Assembly (NCBI GenBank): GCA_022821265.1
Contig: JAJEDW010000200.1
Location: 1 to 50,515, forward strand
Direction: 5' to 3'
DNA length: 50,515 nt
Source: Acidobacteriota bacterium
GTDB taxonomy: Bacteria; Acidobacteriota; Terriglobia; 20CM-2-55-15
Position numbers and translations under genes: made by a program. This document shows, piece by piece, positions 3,538-37,826 of the stretch (its first letter is position 1; every line of letters starts with the position of its first letter). Under the pieces are notes generated by a model. That model was not told the DNA's origin, searched no databases, and saw nothing but the letters and a program-made list of their open reading frames with translations.

Positions 3538-5472
3538 TCAATGGGGGCTCGTGCGGTTCGACGAATGGATGCCGTCGCCGAGCAGCTCGTCCGCGCGCGG
3601 GCCGGTGTAGCGCAACACGTGCAGCCCGGTGTGGTTGTCTCCCACGTAGATCAGGCCGTTGTGGAGGTCGGGGTAGGACATGACGTCCCCCCACGGCACC
3701 GGGCGCGCATGGCCGACTTCCCTCGGGTTGAAGGGATTCGAGATGTCGATCGCGCGGACTCCCTGCCCGAGCCAGTTGACGAAGACCAGGTTCTCCAGCA
3801 CGGTCGGGTTGTGCGCGTGCATCATCGGACGGATCGCCGCGCCGGGCGGCACCGGCTGCGCCAGGCAGTTCTCGACCATGCTGTCCGACATCGCGTGGGC
3901 GCCGATCATCATGGGAGCGATTTCGGACTCGACGTTGATGATCCGCAGGCTCCGCTCCGGGCACGGACCGAAAGGCCATTCCTCGGTAATGACGACGTAG
4001 GCCGGCCGGCCATCCGCGTTCGCGCCGGACAGCGAGGGCCGGTTCGGAACCGGGACGGCGCTGTGGACGCTGACGGACGCGACGAACGGCGGCGCGAAGT
4101 CGAACCGGGACCGCTCCTCGAGCCGCGTGTACCGGACCAGCTTCCGGACGTCGGACATGTCCGAGGCGAGCATGGCCAGCAACCCGGGGTCGGAGTTGAG
4201 AACCGGATGCACGCAATCGTTCGCCGCCTCGGGGAGCCGCGCCACGTCGACCACGCCGCCCACCTCGCCGTCGACCCACACGTTGGTCGAGTGCGTATTG
4301 CAGACGCCGCCTCCCGCGAGGTCCGCGTTCGTGTTGTTCGCGACGAAGGCGGTGTTCAGGATGTACATCCCGGCCGTGCCGCCCGCCGCGTAGAACCGCT
4401 CGCCGTCGTCCGACATCGCACCGGAATGCAGGTCGTTGCCCTGGGACGGTTGCGAAGCGCCCGGGCGGCCCCATTGATCGGTCAGGTGGCTGTAGTCGGG
4501 AAACCGCCCGTCCGAGAACAGGCCGGTCGCGTCGGGCGCCTCGTCGCGCACGGGGCCGCCGACCTCTTCCAGCGTGAACGACGCCAGCAACAGCGGCTCC
4601 TCGAGCACCGCGCCGGTCGACTCATCCGTGACGGCCGTGAACACAAGGTCCTCTTCCTGCGAGCCGTACGTCTGGGAAATGACGACGAAGCGGTTGGGAT
4701 TGTCCGGATCGTGCCATAGATAGAACTCGTGCGCGAGGACGCCGGCCGCCGTCGCGCCCTCGTCGACCGGAAGACACGTCTCGGGATCCAGCGTGTACAC
4801 GATGACGTCGCCGCCGGTGCCCGTGGCCGCGGAGCGCACCATGAGCATGCGTTCGTCGCCGCCGGTCGTCGTGTAGCCGTAGGGACGGAGCTCCCGGTCG
4901 CGCACGGCGGTGTCGCGCGTGACGGTCATCAACTGGGGCATCGTGCCGACTTCGACGGGCGGTTCGTTCTCCGGATCGTCCTGGATCCGGAAGATCCGGA
5001 CGTCGCGGGTGACGCCGGGACCGGTCGTGTTCGTCGAGTTGCTCCGCCCCCAATAGAGGCACTGGCCCGCGATGCCGAGGCCGGTCGAACCCCACCCGGT
5101 CGGGAACCCGTCCAGGTCGCCGCCCGACCACTCGCCGGTCTCCGGATCCAGCTCGGACGGCGCCGTCGGCAGCCAGTGCAGCCACTCGAAGTTGGCGAAC
5201 AGCCCGAGCCGCTCGGCCGCCACGAACGCCCCGGCGTGCGCGTCCTCCGGCGAGGAGGTCGGATCCAGGTTCCCGGACGCGTCCAGGCGGCCGCCCGGCA
5301 ACTCCGCGAAGGGAATATCGAACGTGTCGAAGGTGACCGGAACACAGCGGACCGGACCTTCGAGTTCGGGGTCCTCGCACAGTTCGGGAGCGCCCCCCGT
5401 GTCCTGACCGGGCGCGGCCACGGCCGCGCCGGCCAACAGTGAGAGCGCCAGAATCATCCCTTGCAATCGCAT
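3538..5472 (-). CDS. Secreted beta-propeller protein, LVIVD-repeat-like
   Basis: Start trimmed to ATG 5472..5470, preceded by GGAGG, with signal peptide MRLQGMILALSLLAGAAVAAP. C-terminal segments such as GVRAIDISNPFNPREVG and LIYVGDNHTGLHVLRY resemble LVIVD repeats. The upstream part of the 996-aa ORF is antisense to 5587..6615. Confidence 0.65.
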   Translation of the reverse strand: MRLQGMILALSLLAGAAVAAPGQDTGGAPELCEDPELEGPVRCVPVTFDTFDIPFAELPGGRLDASGNLDPTSSPEDAHAGAFVAAERLGLFANFEWLHWLPTAPSELDPETGEWSGGDLDGFPTGWGSTGLGIAGQCLYWGRSNSTNTTGPGVTRDVRIFRIQDDPENEPPVEVGTMPQLMTVTRDTAVRDRELRPYGYTTTGGDERMLMVRSAATGTGGDVIVYTLDPETCLPVDEGATAAGVLAHEFYLWHDPDNPNRFVVISQTYGSQEEDLVFTAVTDESTGAVLEEPLLLASFTLEEVGGPVRDEAPDATGLFSDGRFPDYSHLTDQWGRPGASQPSQGNDLHSGAMSDDGERFYAAGGTAGMYILNTAFVANNTNADLAGGGVCNTHSTNVWVDGEVGGVVDVARLPEAANDCVHPVLNSDPGLLAMLASDMSDVRKLVRYTRLEERSRFDFAPPFVASVSVHSAVPVPNRPSLSGANADGRPAYVVITEEWPFGPCPERSLRIINVESEIAPMMIGAHAMSDSMVENCLAQPVPPGAAIRPMMHAHNPTVLENLVFVNWLGQGVRAIDISNPFNPREVGHARPVPWGDVMSYPDLHNGLIYVGDNHTGLHVLRYTGPRADELLGDGIHSSNRTSPH

Positions 5473-7767: not shown

Positions 7768-8429
7768 ACGGAGGGTCCCGCCAGGCGGAACGCGAGGCCA
7801 TGGTGGCGCGCCAGATCCGATCGCGCGGCGTCCGCAACGCGGCCGTGCTCGCCGCCGTCCTCCGTGTTCCGCGGCACGAGTTCGTTCCCGACGAAGCCCG
7901 GGCGGACGCCTACGCCGACGGGCCGCTGCCGATCGGCGACGGCCAGACCATCTCGCAACCGTACGTCGTCGCCCGGATGACGGAAATGCTCGACCCGCGG
8001 CCCGGGCGCCGCGTCCTGGAAATCGGGACCGGATCCGGCTACCAGACCGCCGTCCTGGCCGAGCTCGGCGGCGAGGTGTTTTCGATCGAGGCCCGGAAGC
8101 CGCTGCTCGACGCGGCGCGGCAGACGCTGGAGCGCCTCGGCTACGGCCGAATCCGGTTCCGGCACGGGGACGGCGGCGCGGGGTGGCCCGAACACGCCCC
8201 GTTCGACCGCATCGTGATCACGGCGTGCGCCAGGGAGATTCCTCGCTCACTCGCCGTCCAGTTGGCGGCCCCGGGCCGGCTGGTCGGTCCGGTCGGAGAG
8301 CCGGGCGGCGAACAGCGGCTCGTGACCCTGACCCGAAACCGGAACGGGGAAATGGACATCGTCGAGGGCCTTCCGGTACGATTCGTGATGATGACCGCAT
8401 GGAAAGGGGGCAGCGAATCGACCCGATGA
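7764..8429 (+). CDS. pcm: Protein-L-isoaspartate O-methyltransferase
   Basis: Motifs TISQPYVVARMTEML, VLEIGTGSGYQTAVLAEL and FDRIVITA. GTGA start/stop overlap with pgeF. Confidence 0.9.
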   Translation: MNGGSRQAEREAMVARQIRSRGVRNAAVLAAVLRVPRHEFVPDEARADAYADGPLPIGDGQTISQPYVVARMTEMLDPRPGRRVLEIGTGSGYQTAVLAELGGEVFSIEARKPLLDAARQTLERLGYGRIRFRHGDGGAGWPEHAPFDRIVITACAREIPRSLAVQLAAPGRLVGPVGEPGGEQRLVTLTRNRNGEMDIVEGLPVRFVMMTAWKGGSESTR

Positions 8430-8938
8430 GATCGACGACGAAACTCTTGACGGCGGCGCTGGTGGCCACAGCCTGGCCGGCCATGGCCCAGGACGCGCCG
8501 CCCGCGCCCAATATCTCCGGCATGGCCGTCCAGGGCATGATGGTCGACCTGAACAACTTCAGGGGCGACAAGAACATCCTGGTCGTGTTCTACCGGATGC
8601 ACAACTGACCGTTCTGCCAGGCGCAGCTCGGCGAGCTGCAAGCGAACTACGAAGAGATACGGAACCTGGACGCGGAAGTCGTCGCCCTGAGCGCGGACAT
8701 CCCGGCCCAGGCCACGGTGACCGCCACGGAGTTGGGGCTCACCTATCCGATCCTGTCGGACTCGCCCCGCCGCTTCATCCGCGATTACGGCGTCCTGCAT
8801 CCGCAGGAAGGGATCGCGCGGCCCTCGTTGTTCATTCTGAACCGCGACGGGGCCCTGGAATGGAGCTACATCGGGGTGAACGCGTCGGATCGGCCTCCGA
8901 TCGACACGGTTCTGGACGAACTCCGGGCCCTGCAGTAG
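8426..8938 (+). CDS. Periplasmic AhpC/TSA-family (Prx-like) thiol:disulfide oxidoreductase, predicted selenoprotein (UGA 8606..8608 read as Sec in a U-P-F-C motif)
   Basis: ATGA overlap with the pcm stop. Signal peptide MRSTTKLLTAALVATAWPAMA. ILVVFYRMHN-TGA-PFCQAQLGEL continues in frame into the track ORF 8717..8938 (LTYPILSD, SLFILNRDG). The TGA sits where this family carries the first Cys of WCPxC. Confidence 0.75.
8623..8639 (+). promoter_or_regulatory. Candidate bacterial SECIS hairpin (GCAGCUC-GGC-GAGCUGC)
   Basis: Perfect 7-bp stem with a G-rich apical loop centred 22-24 nt 3' of the UGA at 8606..8608. Confidence 0.5.
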
Positions 8939-35581: not shown

Positions 35582-35983
35582 ATGTTTGGCGTCCCGCTCC
35601 ACCGGTTGATCATCTATCTTCCCGTCCTTCTTTCGTTTGCGGCGCTCGTCACCGACGCCTGGGCCGCGGCGTCCGGGGCGGGGCGCGCCCACGCCGCCGG
35701 CTCCCGCCTTTCGAAATGGGCGGCGGCGGCGGCGCTGGCCGCGGTGGCAAGCGGCTTCAGCCTGGCCGGGCAGTCGGGTGTCGGGAGCCGCGGCGAGGTC
35801 ACCGGACACGCGGCGCTGGGTTCGGCCGCGGCGATCGTCCTGGCGGCGTTCGCCTACGCGCGGTACGCCGCGGAGAACCGCGGCGAGGGGCCCGCGACAG
35901 CCTACTCCGGACTCTGGATGGCGGCCGAGGTCCTGGCCGTGGTCCTGGTGACCGCTGCGGCCGTCGTCGGCTTCGGCCTGTAA
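35582..35983 (+). CDS. Integral membrane protein (four helices, DUF2231-like)
   Basis: Hydrophobic segments IIYLPVLLSFAALV, AAAAALAAVASGF, AAAIVLAAFAYA and VLAVVLVTAAAVVGF. Confidence 0.55.
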   Translation: MFGVPLHRLIIYLPVLLSFAALVTDAWAAASGAGRAHAAGSRLSKWAAAAALAAVASGFSLAGQSGVGSRGEVTGHAALGSAAAIVLAAFAYARYAAENRGEGPATAYSGLWMAAEVLAVVLVTAAAVVGFGL

Positions 35984-36008
35984 CGCCAGAGCCCCCCGGT
36001 CCGGATTC

Positions 36009-36698
36009 CTACGCGTCGAGGACGTAGTCCCGCTCGACGAGGGTTCCGGGTTCGCCCGGATACTTCAAGAGCTCCAGGGCGTCGGCGAGAACGCGTGACT
36101 GGAGAGGGGCCTCTCCGGGCCGGCCCAGCGACTGCCCGATCGGGAACGGCTTGGGACGGAGCGCGCGCGGGGGCCCGGCCTGCTCGGACTCCTCCGGCGA
36201 AACCGTGATCAGAACCGTCGAGATTCCCATGCATTCGATGGCGCGCTGTATCGTGACGACCGTCCGATGACAGAGCGGTCAGCCGCCGGTGAGCACGACC
36301 GCGTCGGGGCGCGTGCGCGCCACGGCTTCGGCGATCTCCCAACTCGTCTCTTCCTTGAGCTTCCGCAGTTGGGTGGTCAACCCCATGGAGAAATGCGCTT
36401 CGGCGACCTTCCCGAACACGCCCTCCCGCTGCAGCGCTCTCAGGCGATCGACGGGGAACACGCAGTTGATGTCGGCGTCGGCCGCCGTCGTGTCGTAGTG
36501 GCCCGCCGACACGCGCAGGTCGGACGCGGCCGCGTCCCCGGGTATGACGCGGAAGGTCGGATCGTTGTCGCCGAACGGCTCGGCGCCCTCCGGGTGGACG
36601 CCGGCGGTGGTGACCAAGCCGACGCGGGACTCTCCCAGGGCCCGTTTGAACGGGGTGTAGGGTATGCAGGCCCGGGCGAGTTGGGGAGTCACGGACAT
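36009..36698 (-). CDS. Short GrdB-family (glycine/sarcosine/betaine reductase component B-like) predicted selenoprotein; UGA 36281..36279 read as Sec in LTGG-U-PLC
   Basis: The track ORFs 36279..36974 (C-terminal part) and 36009..36230 are in the same frame, joined by TGA plus 16 sense codons. HYDTT..INCVFPVDRLRALQREG and DAVVLTGG-U-PLCHRTVVTIQRAIECMGISTVLIT parallel the GrdB Sec region (ILTSTUGTCTRCGATMVKEIERAGIP, from memory). Confidence 0.8.
36246..36273 (-). promoter_or_regulatory. SECIS-like hairpin with a GGUC apical loop
   Basis: The minus-strand RNA CUGUCAUCGGAC-GGUC-GUCACGAUACAG forms 11 bp with two single-nt bulges. The apical loop lies 18-21 nt 3' of the UGA. The GGUC loop resembles the E. 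coli fdhF SECIS apex. Confidence 0.65.
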
Positions 36699-36748
36699 GG
36701 ATCCACGAACGGCACGGGACCCGAGGGTCCCATGCCGCCCCCGCCGGA

Positions 36749-37228
36749 TCAGTCGTCGAGTTTCTTCAATTCCTCGAACAGCACGGAATTCTTGGGCTGG
36801 TCGCCGATCTCGTGCACGTCGACATAGCGGATCACGCCCTGCTTGTCGATGATGAAAATCGCGCGTTCGGCGAAGCCTTCCCGGCGCAGGACGTTGTATT
36901 GGAGGGCCACGTGTCCGTGCGGAAAGAAATCGCTCAACAGCGGATAGGACAGCCCGCCGAGCGATTCCGCCCACGCCTTGTTGCTGAAGATCGAATCGAT
37001 GCTGATGCCCATGACCTGGGCATCGTACCGGTCGAACTCGGAGAGATCCTCCTCGTACGCCGGCATCTGCAGGGTTCAGACCGGAGTGAACGCAACGGGG
37101 TAGAAGGCGATGACGACGTTCTTCTTCCCCTTGAAGCTGGACAGCGTGACTTCCGTGTCCAGGTGCGAGTTGAGCGTGAAGTCGGGCGCCTCGTCGCCCA
37201 CCTTGAGCTCGTTCGTCGGGTTCGGCAT
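36749..37228 (-). CDS. AhpE-like peroxiredoxin, predicted selenoprotein (UGA 37078..37076 read as Sec at the peroxidatic position: AFYPVAFTPV-U-T)
   Basis: ATG 37228..37226 is preceded by AGAGGAG. 54 sense codons (MPNPTNELKVGDEAPDFTLNS...VVIAFYPVAFTPV) run in frame through the TGA into the track ORF 36749..37066 (ISIDS, YPLLSDFFPHG, IFIIDKQG). Confidence 0.8.
37019..37061 (-). promoter_or_regulatory. Possible SECIS region (GGCGUAC...GUAC-GAU-GCC outer stem, GGAGG-AUC-UCUCC apex)
   Basis: The stem-loop apex lies about 29-31 nt 3' of the UGA. It is less canonical than the other two hairpins. Confidence 0.3.
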
Positions 37229-37412
37229 GAAATCTCCTCTCTGGTCAGTTGCGCCGCCCGGCCCGTGGTGACCGGCGACCGGATAGGATAAGCAATCTCC
37301 GGCTCAAAATCACCCCCTGCGCGGATTTCGGTGACGCACGGTTGCGGCACCCCAATGCCTTGTCGTACAGGCGAGAGCTGGACCCAAGCTTTTCGAAGCG
37401 GCCGCGTACCGG

Positions 37413-37541
37413 TTACGCTCGCGGCCGGTCGCCCGAACCACGTTCGTGCGCTGCAACCGCCAGTGGACGGTCCGCATCGGTCAGAGCGCCGGGCGCTTCC
37501 ATGAGCTTGTAGAGATACGTCGTGTCGAGGAGGACCTGCAC
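37413..37541 (-). pseudogene. Truncated PIN-domain (VapC-like) toxin remnant, 42 codons
   Basis: The GTG start is 4 nt after the phd stop. VQVLLDTTYLYKLMEAPGALTDADR matches the N-terminus of PIN toxins, but the frame stops after 42 aa. No PIN C-terminal motifs appear in any frame downstream. Confidence 0.5.
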
Positions 37542-37544
37542 GGC

Positions 37545-37826
37545 CTACTCGTCGCGTTCGTCGTCCAGTCCGAGGACATGGCGGCTGAGCACGGGATCGT
37601 GGAAGGCCGCTTCCATGGCGTCCACTTCGTCCGACGGCGCGTTCTCGATCCCCAGGCGGCGTCGCGCCGCTTCCAGCTTCTCGAAATCGATCCCGCCGCG
37701 ACGGTCGCAGCGCACAAGCTCCGCGGCAGGCCGCCCATGCTTCGTGATGATCACACGCTCGCCGTTACGGGCGGCCGCGACCAGTTCGGAGAGCCGTGCT
37801 TTCGCGTCGCGAATGGCAAGTTCCAT
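37545..37826 (-). CDS. Phd/YefM-family antitoxin
   Basis: MELAIRDAKARLSELVAAARNGERVIITKHGRPAAELV is a typical Phd/YefM N-terminal domain. RBS GGAG. The rest of the 755-aa ORF is a shadow. Confidence 0.8.
   Translation of the reverse strand: MELAIRDAKARLSELVAAARNGERVIITKHGRPAAELVRCDRRGGIDFEKLEAARRRLGIENAPSDEVDAMEAAFHDPVLSRHVLGLDDERDE

Follow-up and report, generated by a model that had tools for sequence, protein, structure and literature searches.

In the Sargasso Sea metagenome, the selenoproteins named 'Prx (TxxU)', a peroxiredoxin (Prx), and 'proline reductase PrdB (UxxC)' were the second and third commonest known selenoprotein families (43 and 42 genes, respectively), and the Global Ocean Sampling (GOS) survey recovered the two in similar abundance (253 Prx and 235 PrdB); both papers handled the PrdB family as D-proline reductase. 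Here we describe a locus in which an AhpE-type Prx gene and a PrdB-like gene lie next to each other, each with an in-frame TGA read as selenocysteine (Sec, U). The two genes are located on the minus strand of a 50,515-nt contig from an Acidobacteriota bacterium (GenBank assembly GCA_022821265.1, contig JAJEDW010000200.1, positions 1 to 50,515; "the window" refers to this whole stretch). The interpretation toward which we lean is that these are two genuine selenoprotein genes that make up a conserved, probably co-transcribed redox module, in which the PrdB-like protein would recycle the Sec-containing Prx (Sec-Prx).

The AhpE class of Prx is recognized by the signature P-x-A-F-(T/S)-x-(V/I)-Cp, in which Cp is the peroxidatic Cys, as set out in the peroxiredoxin atlas (PMC5302317). 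A U-x-x-C motif is given for both PrdB and GrdB (PMC13188914), and the Sec/Cys pair of these proteins cycles through a selenenylsulfide (PMC10298544). The selenoprotein operons named in the operon section of a 2026 review are grdA-grdB, prdB-prdC, frhA-frhD-hdrA, Prx-SelW, Prx-like-AhpD-like, SAO and Tso, and a Prx-PrdB pair is absent from that section. In the searchable literature, outside which subscription-only papers fall, 'Prx' and 'PrdB' are listed separately and never paired, and no link of the GrdB/PrdB family to peroxide metabolism was found. The pairing of the Prx and PrdB-like genes is probably undescribed. Taken alone, each gene adds a new member to a selenoprotein family already known, and the pairing is the added result.

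Results

Two adjacent genes with in-frame UGA codons

Gene 1 (36749..37228, minus strand) begins with an ATG at 37228 and ends with a TGA stop at 36751..36749, giving 159 codons plus the stop. Its in-frame UGA (37076..37078) stands in place of the peroxidatic Cys, in the context AFYPVAFTPV-U-TLQMP, and a Shine-Dalgarno-like AGAGGAG, read directly from the sequence, is located at 37234..37240, with 5 nt between it and the ATG. Gene 2 (36009..36698, minus strand) extends from an ATG at 36698 to a TAG stop at 36011..36009 (229 codons plus the stop), and its UGA (36279..36281) is the first position of a U-x-x-C motif, LTGG-U-PLCHR. A list of open reading frames (ORFs) of the window and public gene calls break the two genes into pieces of 50+105 aa and 139+73 aa. 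A first-pass annotation, made from the letters of the window alone, had joined these pieces into two UGA-recoded genes; when the sequence was re-read and both genes were translated, its coordinates, its motifs, the AGAGGAG ribosome-binding site and the 50-nt gap between the genes were all found to be correct.

The gene 1 product was assigned to the AhpE-type peroxiredoxins from its translation, a Pfam match, its closest relative in the PDB and an alignment of homologs. With U replaced by C, the product matched Pfam AhpC-TSA (1.3e-36), and Mycobacterium tuberculosis AhpE was its best solved relative (1.4e-30). The translation and the homolog alignment place the active site at P44-x-A-F-T48-P-V-U51 plus R122, so that the AhpE-type signature and the conserved Arg are both present. 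U51 aligned with Cys45 of AhpE and with the peroxidatic Cys of the Cys-containing homologs, which carry FTPV-C at this site; the earlier proposal that the TGA replaces the peroxidatic Cys of an AhpE-like protein was thereby borne out. Position 51 is the only one conserved as U/C among 78 Prx homologs, as expected of the 1-Cys class, and the gene 1 product of the window contains no cysteine at all, which indicates a 1-Sec peroxiredoxin that lacks a resolving residue. A single extra Cys aligned to residue 82 is found in 34 of the 78 paired Prx homologs (L015-L094), none of which belongs to the window's lineage; this Cys could be a lineage-specific resolving residue.

The UGA has affected how relatives of gene 1 appear in the databases. 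Dozens of them are known only as 105-aa C-terminal pieces that begin right after the TGA. Three Sec-Prx proteins from the Joint Genome Institute (JGI), P0121, P0123 and P0128, are of full length and have Trp at the Sec site (FTPV-W-T), from which it appears that the contigs were gene-called under a code in which UGA specifies Trp, masking the selenoprotein.

Gene 2 encodes a stand-alone PrdB-like selenoprotein of the Pfam GRDB type, as judged from its translation, NCBIfam model TIGR04483 (PrdB), Pfam and alignments. The TIGR04483 match covered the whole length of the protein (3.6e-47, positions 20-223 of 238), and the GRDB match (7.4e-10) passed the gathering score (39.1 versus 22). Assignment to D-proline reductase PrdB itself was rejected, however, as the score of 160.8 bits is under the TIGR04483 equivalog cutoff of 300. 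All 58 full-length Cys homologs of gene 2 are also under this cutoff, the best E-value among them being 9e-61 and one of them, P0002, scoring 188 bits. GrdB, GrdF and GrdH were likewise rejected: gene 2 scored 46-54 bits, under all of the NCBIfam cutoffs (602 for TIGR01917, 800 for NF040794, 775 for NF040795 and 65.45 for the subfamily model TIGR01918), and the 229-aa product covers only the C-terminal region (~263 to 424) of these ~430-aa models. Since gene 2 and its 58 homologs score under the PrdB cutoff, and gene 2 far under those for GrdB, GrdF and GrdH, we place it in a distinct PrdB-like subfamily of the GRDB superfamily; none of the NCBIfam models is dedicated to this clade. The label of a short GrdB-family selenoprotein given in the first-pass annotation was right as to the superfamily, but the protein is specifically PrdB-like, while remaining below the equivalog cutoff.

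The residues conserved in gene 2 include C11, U140-P-L-C143-H-R and many invariant polar positions (D46, H67, Y68, D76, R87, H144, R145, R152, E155 and R178 across the family). C11, U/C140 and C143 are kept in 80 of 80 PrdB-like genes. The 58 full-length Cys homologs invariably have Cys in the column of U140 (LTGG-C-PLC-HR; G-C-P-x-C-H-R), in accordance with the earlier view that the second TGA stands at a catalytic-type redox residue, and the close relatives P0001, P0018 and P0090 terminate exactly at LTGG. Judged by the listed motif rather than by direct alignment with PrdB, U140-P-L-C143 is the U-x-x-C of PrdB. The spacing of the motif varies with lineage: U-P-L-C (UxxC) is found in the window and in Terriglobia, Ktedonobacterales and Anaeromyxobacteraceae (alignment A3 columns 4-18; L021-L094), and U-P-x-V-C (UxxxC, longer by one codon) in Blastocatellia, Pyrinomonadaceae and some Chloroflexota. 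The structure of the family was modelled with AlphaFold on P0002, which is 58% identical to gene 2. The model (pLDDT, the predicted local distance difference test score, 92.9) predicts a well-defined alpha/beta domain that does not have a thioredoxin fold. Nothing significant was found for it in the PDB by Foldseek, or by phmmer against PDB sequences, and the structure therefore offers no functional lead.

Both UGAs are Sec codons

Comparison of related sequences confirmed that both in-frame TGAs are genuine Sec codons, neither chance nor assembly error. Both TGAs recur in six other assemblies (L001-L006), which come from this or sister populations and were built from different samples with different assemblers. 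Among species-representative genomes, 67 of 77 Prx homologs and 74 of 80 PrdB-like loci have TGA at the site in question, and downstream of each TGA the frames stay 50-97% identical in amino acids to the shared C-termini. Both genes thus show a UGA that aligns with Cys together with a frame that is conserved beyond it, and the argument of the first-pass annotation that two such codons in neighbouring genes are not there by chance was upheld. TGA is also the ordinary stop of 10 of the 14 Pfam-supported ORFs in the window, gene 1 among them, showing that the recoding is site-specific and excluding a genome-wide reassignment of UGA.

SECIS-type hairpins follow both UGAs

The first-pass annotation had proposed a search for bacterial selenocysteine insertion sequences (bSECIS) after each UGA. 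Hairpins that conform to the published bSECIS model (a loop of 3-9 nt, a G within the first two loop positions, a spacing of 16-37 nt and a minimum free energy, MFE, of -7.5 or lower) were found at both sites, with the comparative support described below. The gene 1 hairpin (37026..37065, minus strand) is 40 nt long, with an upper stem GGAG/CUCC and an apical loop GAUCU; it lies 27 nt from the UGA and has a folding energy of -19.3 kcal/mol (z -3.05). The gene 2 hairpin (36242..36277, minus strand) has its core at 36250..36268, AUCGGAC-GGUC-GUC(A)CGAU, and its apical loop GGUC is 17 nt past the UGA (-15.6 kcal/mol, z -2.9).

We compared the Sec and Cys forms of each family. The 57 nt past the Prx codon gave a median folding z of -2.18 in 66 distinct Sec forms versus -0.16 in 10 Cys forms (Mann-Whitney p 4e-6), and the loop GG of the PrdB-like hairpin was present in 75 of 76 Sec forms versus 0 of 6 Cys forms (Fisher 2e-8), p-values which overstate the independence of the data because the sequences of both forms are phylogenetically related. 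Over the 76 distinct Sec forms, the 7-bp helix of the PrdB-like hairpin was 94.9% paired; in 17 of them a C-G pair is replaced by U-A. The loop GG spans the synonymous third position of a Thr codon. Read at the nucleotide level, these Sec-form comparisons separate constraint on the RNA from constraint on the protein. Sec and Cys forms of the PrdB-like gene could not be told apart by the MFE of the whole segment, and are separated only by the small GGUC hairpin. RNAalifold gave almost no consensus structure for the 76 PrdB-like and 66 Prx post-UGA segments, and for this reason the PrdB-like helix was scored as a helix specified by the analyst and the Prx segments were assessed by the folding z-scores of Sec versus Cys forms. 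The pairing registers of the Prx hairpins differ between lineages. In Anaeromyxobacteraceae, the PrdB-like GGUC loop is carried on a stem of a different register (GCACGG-UGGUCA-CCGUGC). A scan of the whole window at Rfam gathering scores matched no family.

The gene pair is conserved in four phyla

The distribution of the pair was examined by scanning GTDB, one genome per species, with the PrdB-like alignment. At least 584 relatives were found, and the best 80 loci were analysed; these are the loci most similar to the query, and the linkage frequency applies to them rather than to the whole family. Searching with both window proteins by tblastn detected an AhpE-like Prx, 48-62% identical, in the flank of 78 of the 80 PrdB-like loci, and in 75 of the 78 the Prx gene is on the same strand, directly upstream of the PrdB-like gene, with a median gap of ~85 nt. 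A search begun from Prx fragments arrived at the same gene pair. The co-occurrence of the two genes in other genomes, a check suggested by the first-pass annotation, thus revealed a widely conserved two-gene module. The closest of these loci are in Acidobacteriota metagenome-assembled genomes (MAGs), at 91% and ~70% identity; the Acidobacteria MAG JAJEEE01 is 91-97% identical. The hosts comprise Acidobacteriota (Terriglobia, Blastocatellia, Pyrinomonadaceae), Anaeromyxobacteraceae and other Myxococcota, Chloroflexota (Ktedonobacterales and others) and Methylomirabilota. Among cultured Sec users, Anaeromyxobacter dehalogenans is listed with 'peroxiredoxin (3), proline reductase'.

The use of Sec and the divergence of the two proteins are also correlated. 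Approximately 65 pairs are Sec/Sec, 4 are Cys/Cys, 6 combine a Cys Prx with a Sec PrdB-like protein and 2 show the reverse, and the Sec states of the two genes are associated (Fisher 0.002, uncorrected for phylogeny). The pairwise distance matrices of the two proteins correlate with a Mantel r of 0.895. When the flanking ORFs were clustered, no third family exceeded 25 of 84 loci, and PrdA was not seen; within +/-10 kb of the pair there was no prdA-type or other prd Pfam family, so that co-encoding with prdA, as in a prd operon, was not observed. Without a conserved third gene, the two genes appear to move as a unit amid changing neighbourhoods.

Some relatives of each gene are found in other settings. 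Stand-alone Cys AhpE-like Prx occur without a PrdB-like neighbour. Sister AhpE-like Prx (55-60% identical) are fused to a glutaredoxin domain, and the single fusion locus examined has no PrdB-like neighbour. At L098 (3315..3956 and 4001..4726; also at L099), the gene for P0014, a Cys-form PrdB-like protein, is 45 nt downstream of a gene encoding a 213-aa protein with a weak hit to the cysteine-dioxygenase (CDO_I) cupins. A tRNA-Cys(GCA) gene is located ~3 kb downstream of the pair in the Anaeromyxobacteraceae/Myxococcales loci L019, L024, L037, L039 and L043, which is probably lineage synteny.

The intercistronic spacer and the surroundings of the pair

A GC-rich hairpin (36700..36750, minus strand) fills the 50-nt spacer between the gene 1 stop and the gene 2 ATG. 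It is highly stable (-38.7 kcal/mol, z -4.5; none of 200 shuffles was as stable), its 3' arm reaches the gene 2 ATG and it is not followed by a U tract. Comparably strong but unrelated spacer hairpins are found in some lineages (e.g. L023, L030, L035, L045, L075 and L092), and none in the close relatives L010-L014. The spacer hairpin may modulate the relative expression of gene 1 and gene 2. A scan of positions 35800-37600 detected no sigma-70 promoter and no intrinsic terminator.

An orphan Phd/YefM-type antitoxin-like gene of 93 aa (37545..37826, minus strand) lies 316 nt upstream of the Sec-Prx gene on the same strand. No toxin gene was seen beside it, and it is absent from the syntenic Terriglobia loci L007 and L010. 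The gene for P0139, an unrelated AhpE-like Prx of the Cys type, likewise has a PhdYeFM gene upstream of it, in divergent orientation (L104, 2600..2875; L105; L106). The Phd/YefM-type gene may encode a DNA-binding protein that regulates the Prx, unless the association is coincidental.

The window carries a third candidate selenoprotein gene at 8426..8938 on the plus strand, with its TGA at 8606..8608 and an AhpC-TSA match of 2.2e-26. The product would have a signal peptide and resemble a Prx-like thiol:disulfide oxidoreductase of the known 'Prx-like UxxC' type; in its motif, VVFYRMHN-U-PFC, the C of UxxC falls where AhpE has its canonical Cp. Its UGA is followed, after 21 nt, by a perfect 7-bp hairpin, GCAGCUC-GGC-GAGCUGC (-10.4 kcal/mol). 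Gene callers would be expected to truncate this gene as well. The presence of three UGA-containing redox genes in one window lends indirect support to Sec decoding in this organism, and selenoproteins have been reported from Acidobacteria (PMC1794560).

Discussion

We infer the relay mechanism from genomic context. The Prx selenolate would reduce a hydroperoxide and be converted to a selenenic acid, which would be attacked by the selenol of the PrdB-like protein to give an intermolecular Se-Se bond. Cys143 would then resolve this bond, forming an intramolecular selenenylsulfide and releasing the reduced Prx, and the PrdB-like protein would be re-reduced by a general thiol system such as thioredoxin. 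The synthesis of both partners would depend on the SECIS hairpins, which lie within the coding sequence just past each UGA and would direct its decoding. AhpE depends on an external reductant, mycoredoxin-1/mycothiol. The Prx-glutaredoxin fusions represent a built-in reductant where the PrdB-like gene is absent, an absence seen in one lineage, and lend circumstantial support to the relay. The known selenenylsulfide cycling, the need of AhpE for a reductant and the glutaredoxin fusions together render the relay plausible. By sequence criteria, namely the lack of a PrdA gene nearby and a score under the PrdB equivalog threshold, the gene 2 product is not a D-proline reductase, and the pair is probably an antioxidant module rather than an amino-acid fermentation enzyme. 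More tentatively, and with somewhat more doubt than confidence, we extend this proposal to environmental 'PrdB' outside Stickland fermenters, which could be a dedicated selenol recycler of 1-Sec AhpE-type Prx in an all-selenium relay.

The main rival explanation, which we consider unlikely, is that the PrdB-like protein is, by analogy with the Stickland enzymes, the catalytic subunit of a reductase that would cleave a C-N, C-S, C-Se or similar bond of a small molecule. The Sec-Prx-like protein would then act as an electron donor, a protector or a redox sensor and would not be the enzyme served, a role to which we give a similarly low probability. A reductase could account for the many invariant charged and polar residues away from the redox motif, several of which are Arg that could bind a carboxylate, for the match of the PrdB model over the full length, for a predicted alpha/beta fold that is well defined and not that of thioredoxin, and for the ability of a PrdB-like gene to partner a CDO_I-like cupin. 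However, neither a PrdA/GrdE-type pyruvoyl subunit nor any other third gene is conserved beside the pair, and the Prx retains a complete peroxidatic site (P-x-A-F-T-x-V-U plus Arg), arguing that it is built for peroxides and not as a disulfide reductant. Clearly less probable still is that the two selenoprotein genes are merely syntenic and have independent functions, being held together by shared regulation, for example by selenium availability, or by lineage history. The stand-alone Cys AhpE-like Prx without a PrdB-like neighbour and the strong hairpin between the two cistrons in the window could be taken in this sense, but order, strand and short spacing are kept in four phyla while all flanking genes change, and from the side of the PrdB-like gene the linkage is near-universal among the loci analysed (78 of 80). 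As for the TGAs themselves, sequencing or assembly errors, pseudogenes or an alternative code in which UGA means Trp or Gly are effectively refuted. Gene callers do split both genes, and W does occupy the Prx site in some JGI proteins; against this, the same TGAs are present in the six independent assemblies and in ~70 species-level genomes, frame and protein sequence are conserved past them, homologs align Cys and not Trp, SECIS hairpins follow both codons, and TGA ends most of the confident ORFs in the window (10 of 14).

Returning to the recycling of the Sec-Prx by the PrdB-like protein, several observations weigh against it. The invariant polar residues of the PrdB-like family exceed the usual needs of a simple redox carrier, which hints at a small-molecule active site. 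P0014, a Cys-form PrdB-like protein, lies after a CDO_I-like cupin instead of a Prx, suggesting that the family may serve more than one thiol-oxidation enzyme, and in Dictyobacter the Prx gene is 1.8 kb away on the opposite strand. The spacer hairpin could partly uncouple gene 1 from gene 2 in expression. Any two linked genes that are inherited together would also be expected to show adjacency, co-inheritance and a correlated use of Sec. Finally, a search of the 50-kb window and of the regions flanking 60 related loci found neither selA, selB, selD nor tRNA-Sec, and the Sec machinery of the organism is therefore assumed.

If the PrdB-like protein does recycle the Sec-Prx, the coupling of a GrdB/PrdB-family protein to a Prx would represent a novel way of recycling Prx, and would give this structurally uncharacterised family its first role outside Stickland reactions. 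It would also explain the near-equal numbers of 'Prx' and 'PrdB' in the Sargasso Sea and GOS surveys, and it offers a testable explanation for the abundance of 'PrdB' next to 'Prx' in oxic ocean metagenomes. The module implies that 'PrdB' outside Stickland fermenters is misannotated. The full-length Cys forms are at present named 'D-proline reductase (dithiol) PrdB', which wrongly implies that Acidobacteriota, Chloroflexota and Myxococcota of soil carry out Stickland fermentation. Natural Cys/Cys pairs are available from MAGs that include Ktedonobacterales and Chloroflexi (L035, L070, L089), and from L020, so that the biochemistry can be approached without selenoprotein expression.

The pair can be compared with several known systems. 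The logic of a peroxidase encoded beside its recycler is shared with ahpC-ahpF, ahpC-ahpD, the Prx-glutaredoxin fusions, and the Prx/SelW and Prx-like/AhpD-like neighbours of the GOS survey; in the module described here, unlike these, the partner belongs to the GrdB/PrdB family, for which there is no solved structure. PrdB of the Clostridium sticklandii and C. difficile prd operon is the closest curated model to gene 2, which resembles it in length (229 versus 238 aa) and in the U-x-x-C motif. Gene 2 differs from it in scoring below the cutoff, in having no prdA, prdC or other prd genes nearby and in having a Prx as its partner, and the hosts of the PrdB-like genes (Acidobacteriota, Chloroflexota, Myxococcota and Methylomirabilota) are not Stickland fermenters. 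Gene 1 shares with the Sec 'Prx' family (TxxU; surveys of Zhang and Gladyshev; PrxU of Eubacterium acidaminophilum) the replacement of Cp by Sec in T-x-x-U and a SECIS just downstream. In contrast to PrxU, it is of the AhpE-like 1-Cys class and has no other Cys, and its assignment to PrxU was rejected, as it scored 74.6 bits with NF040737 against an equivalog cutoff of 270. With M. tuberculosis AhpE (Rv2238c), gene 1 has in common the P-x-A-F-T-x-(V/I)-C arrangement, the SDFWPHG motif and the lack of a resolving Cys; AhpE, however, has Cys where gene 1 has Sec, and the candidate reductant of the gene 1 product is an unrelated PrdB-like selenoprotein.

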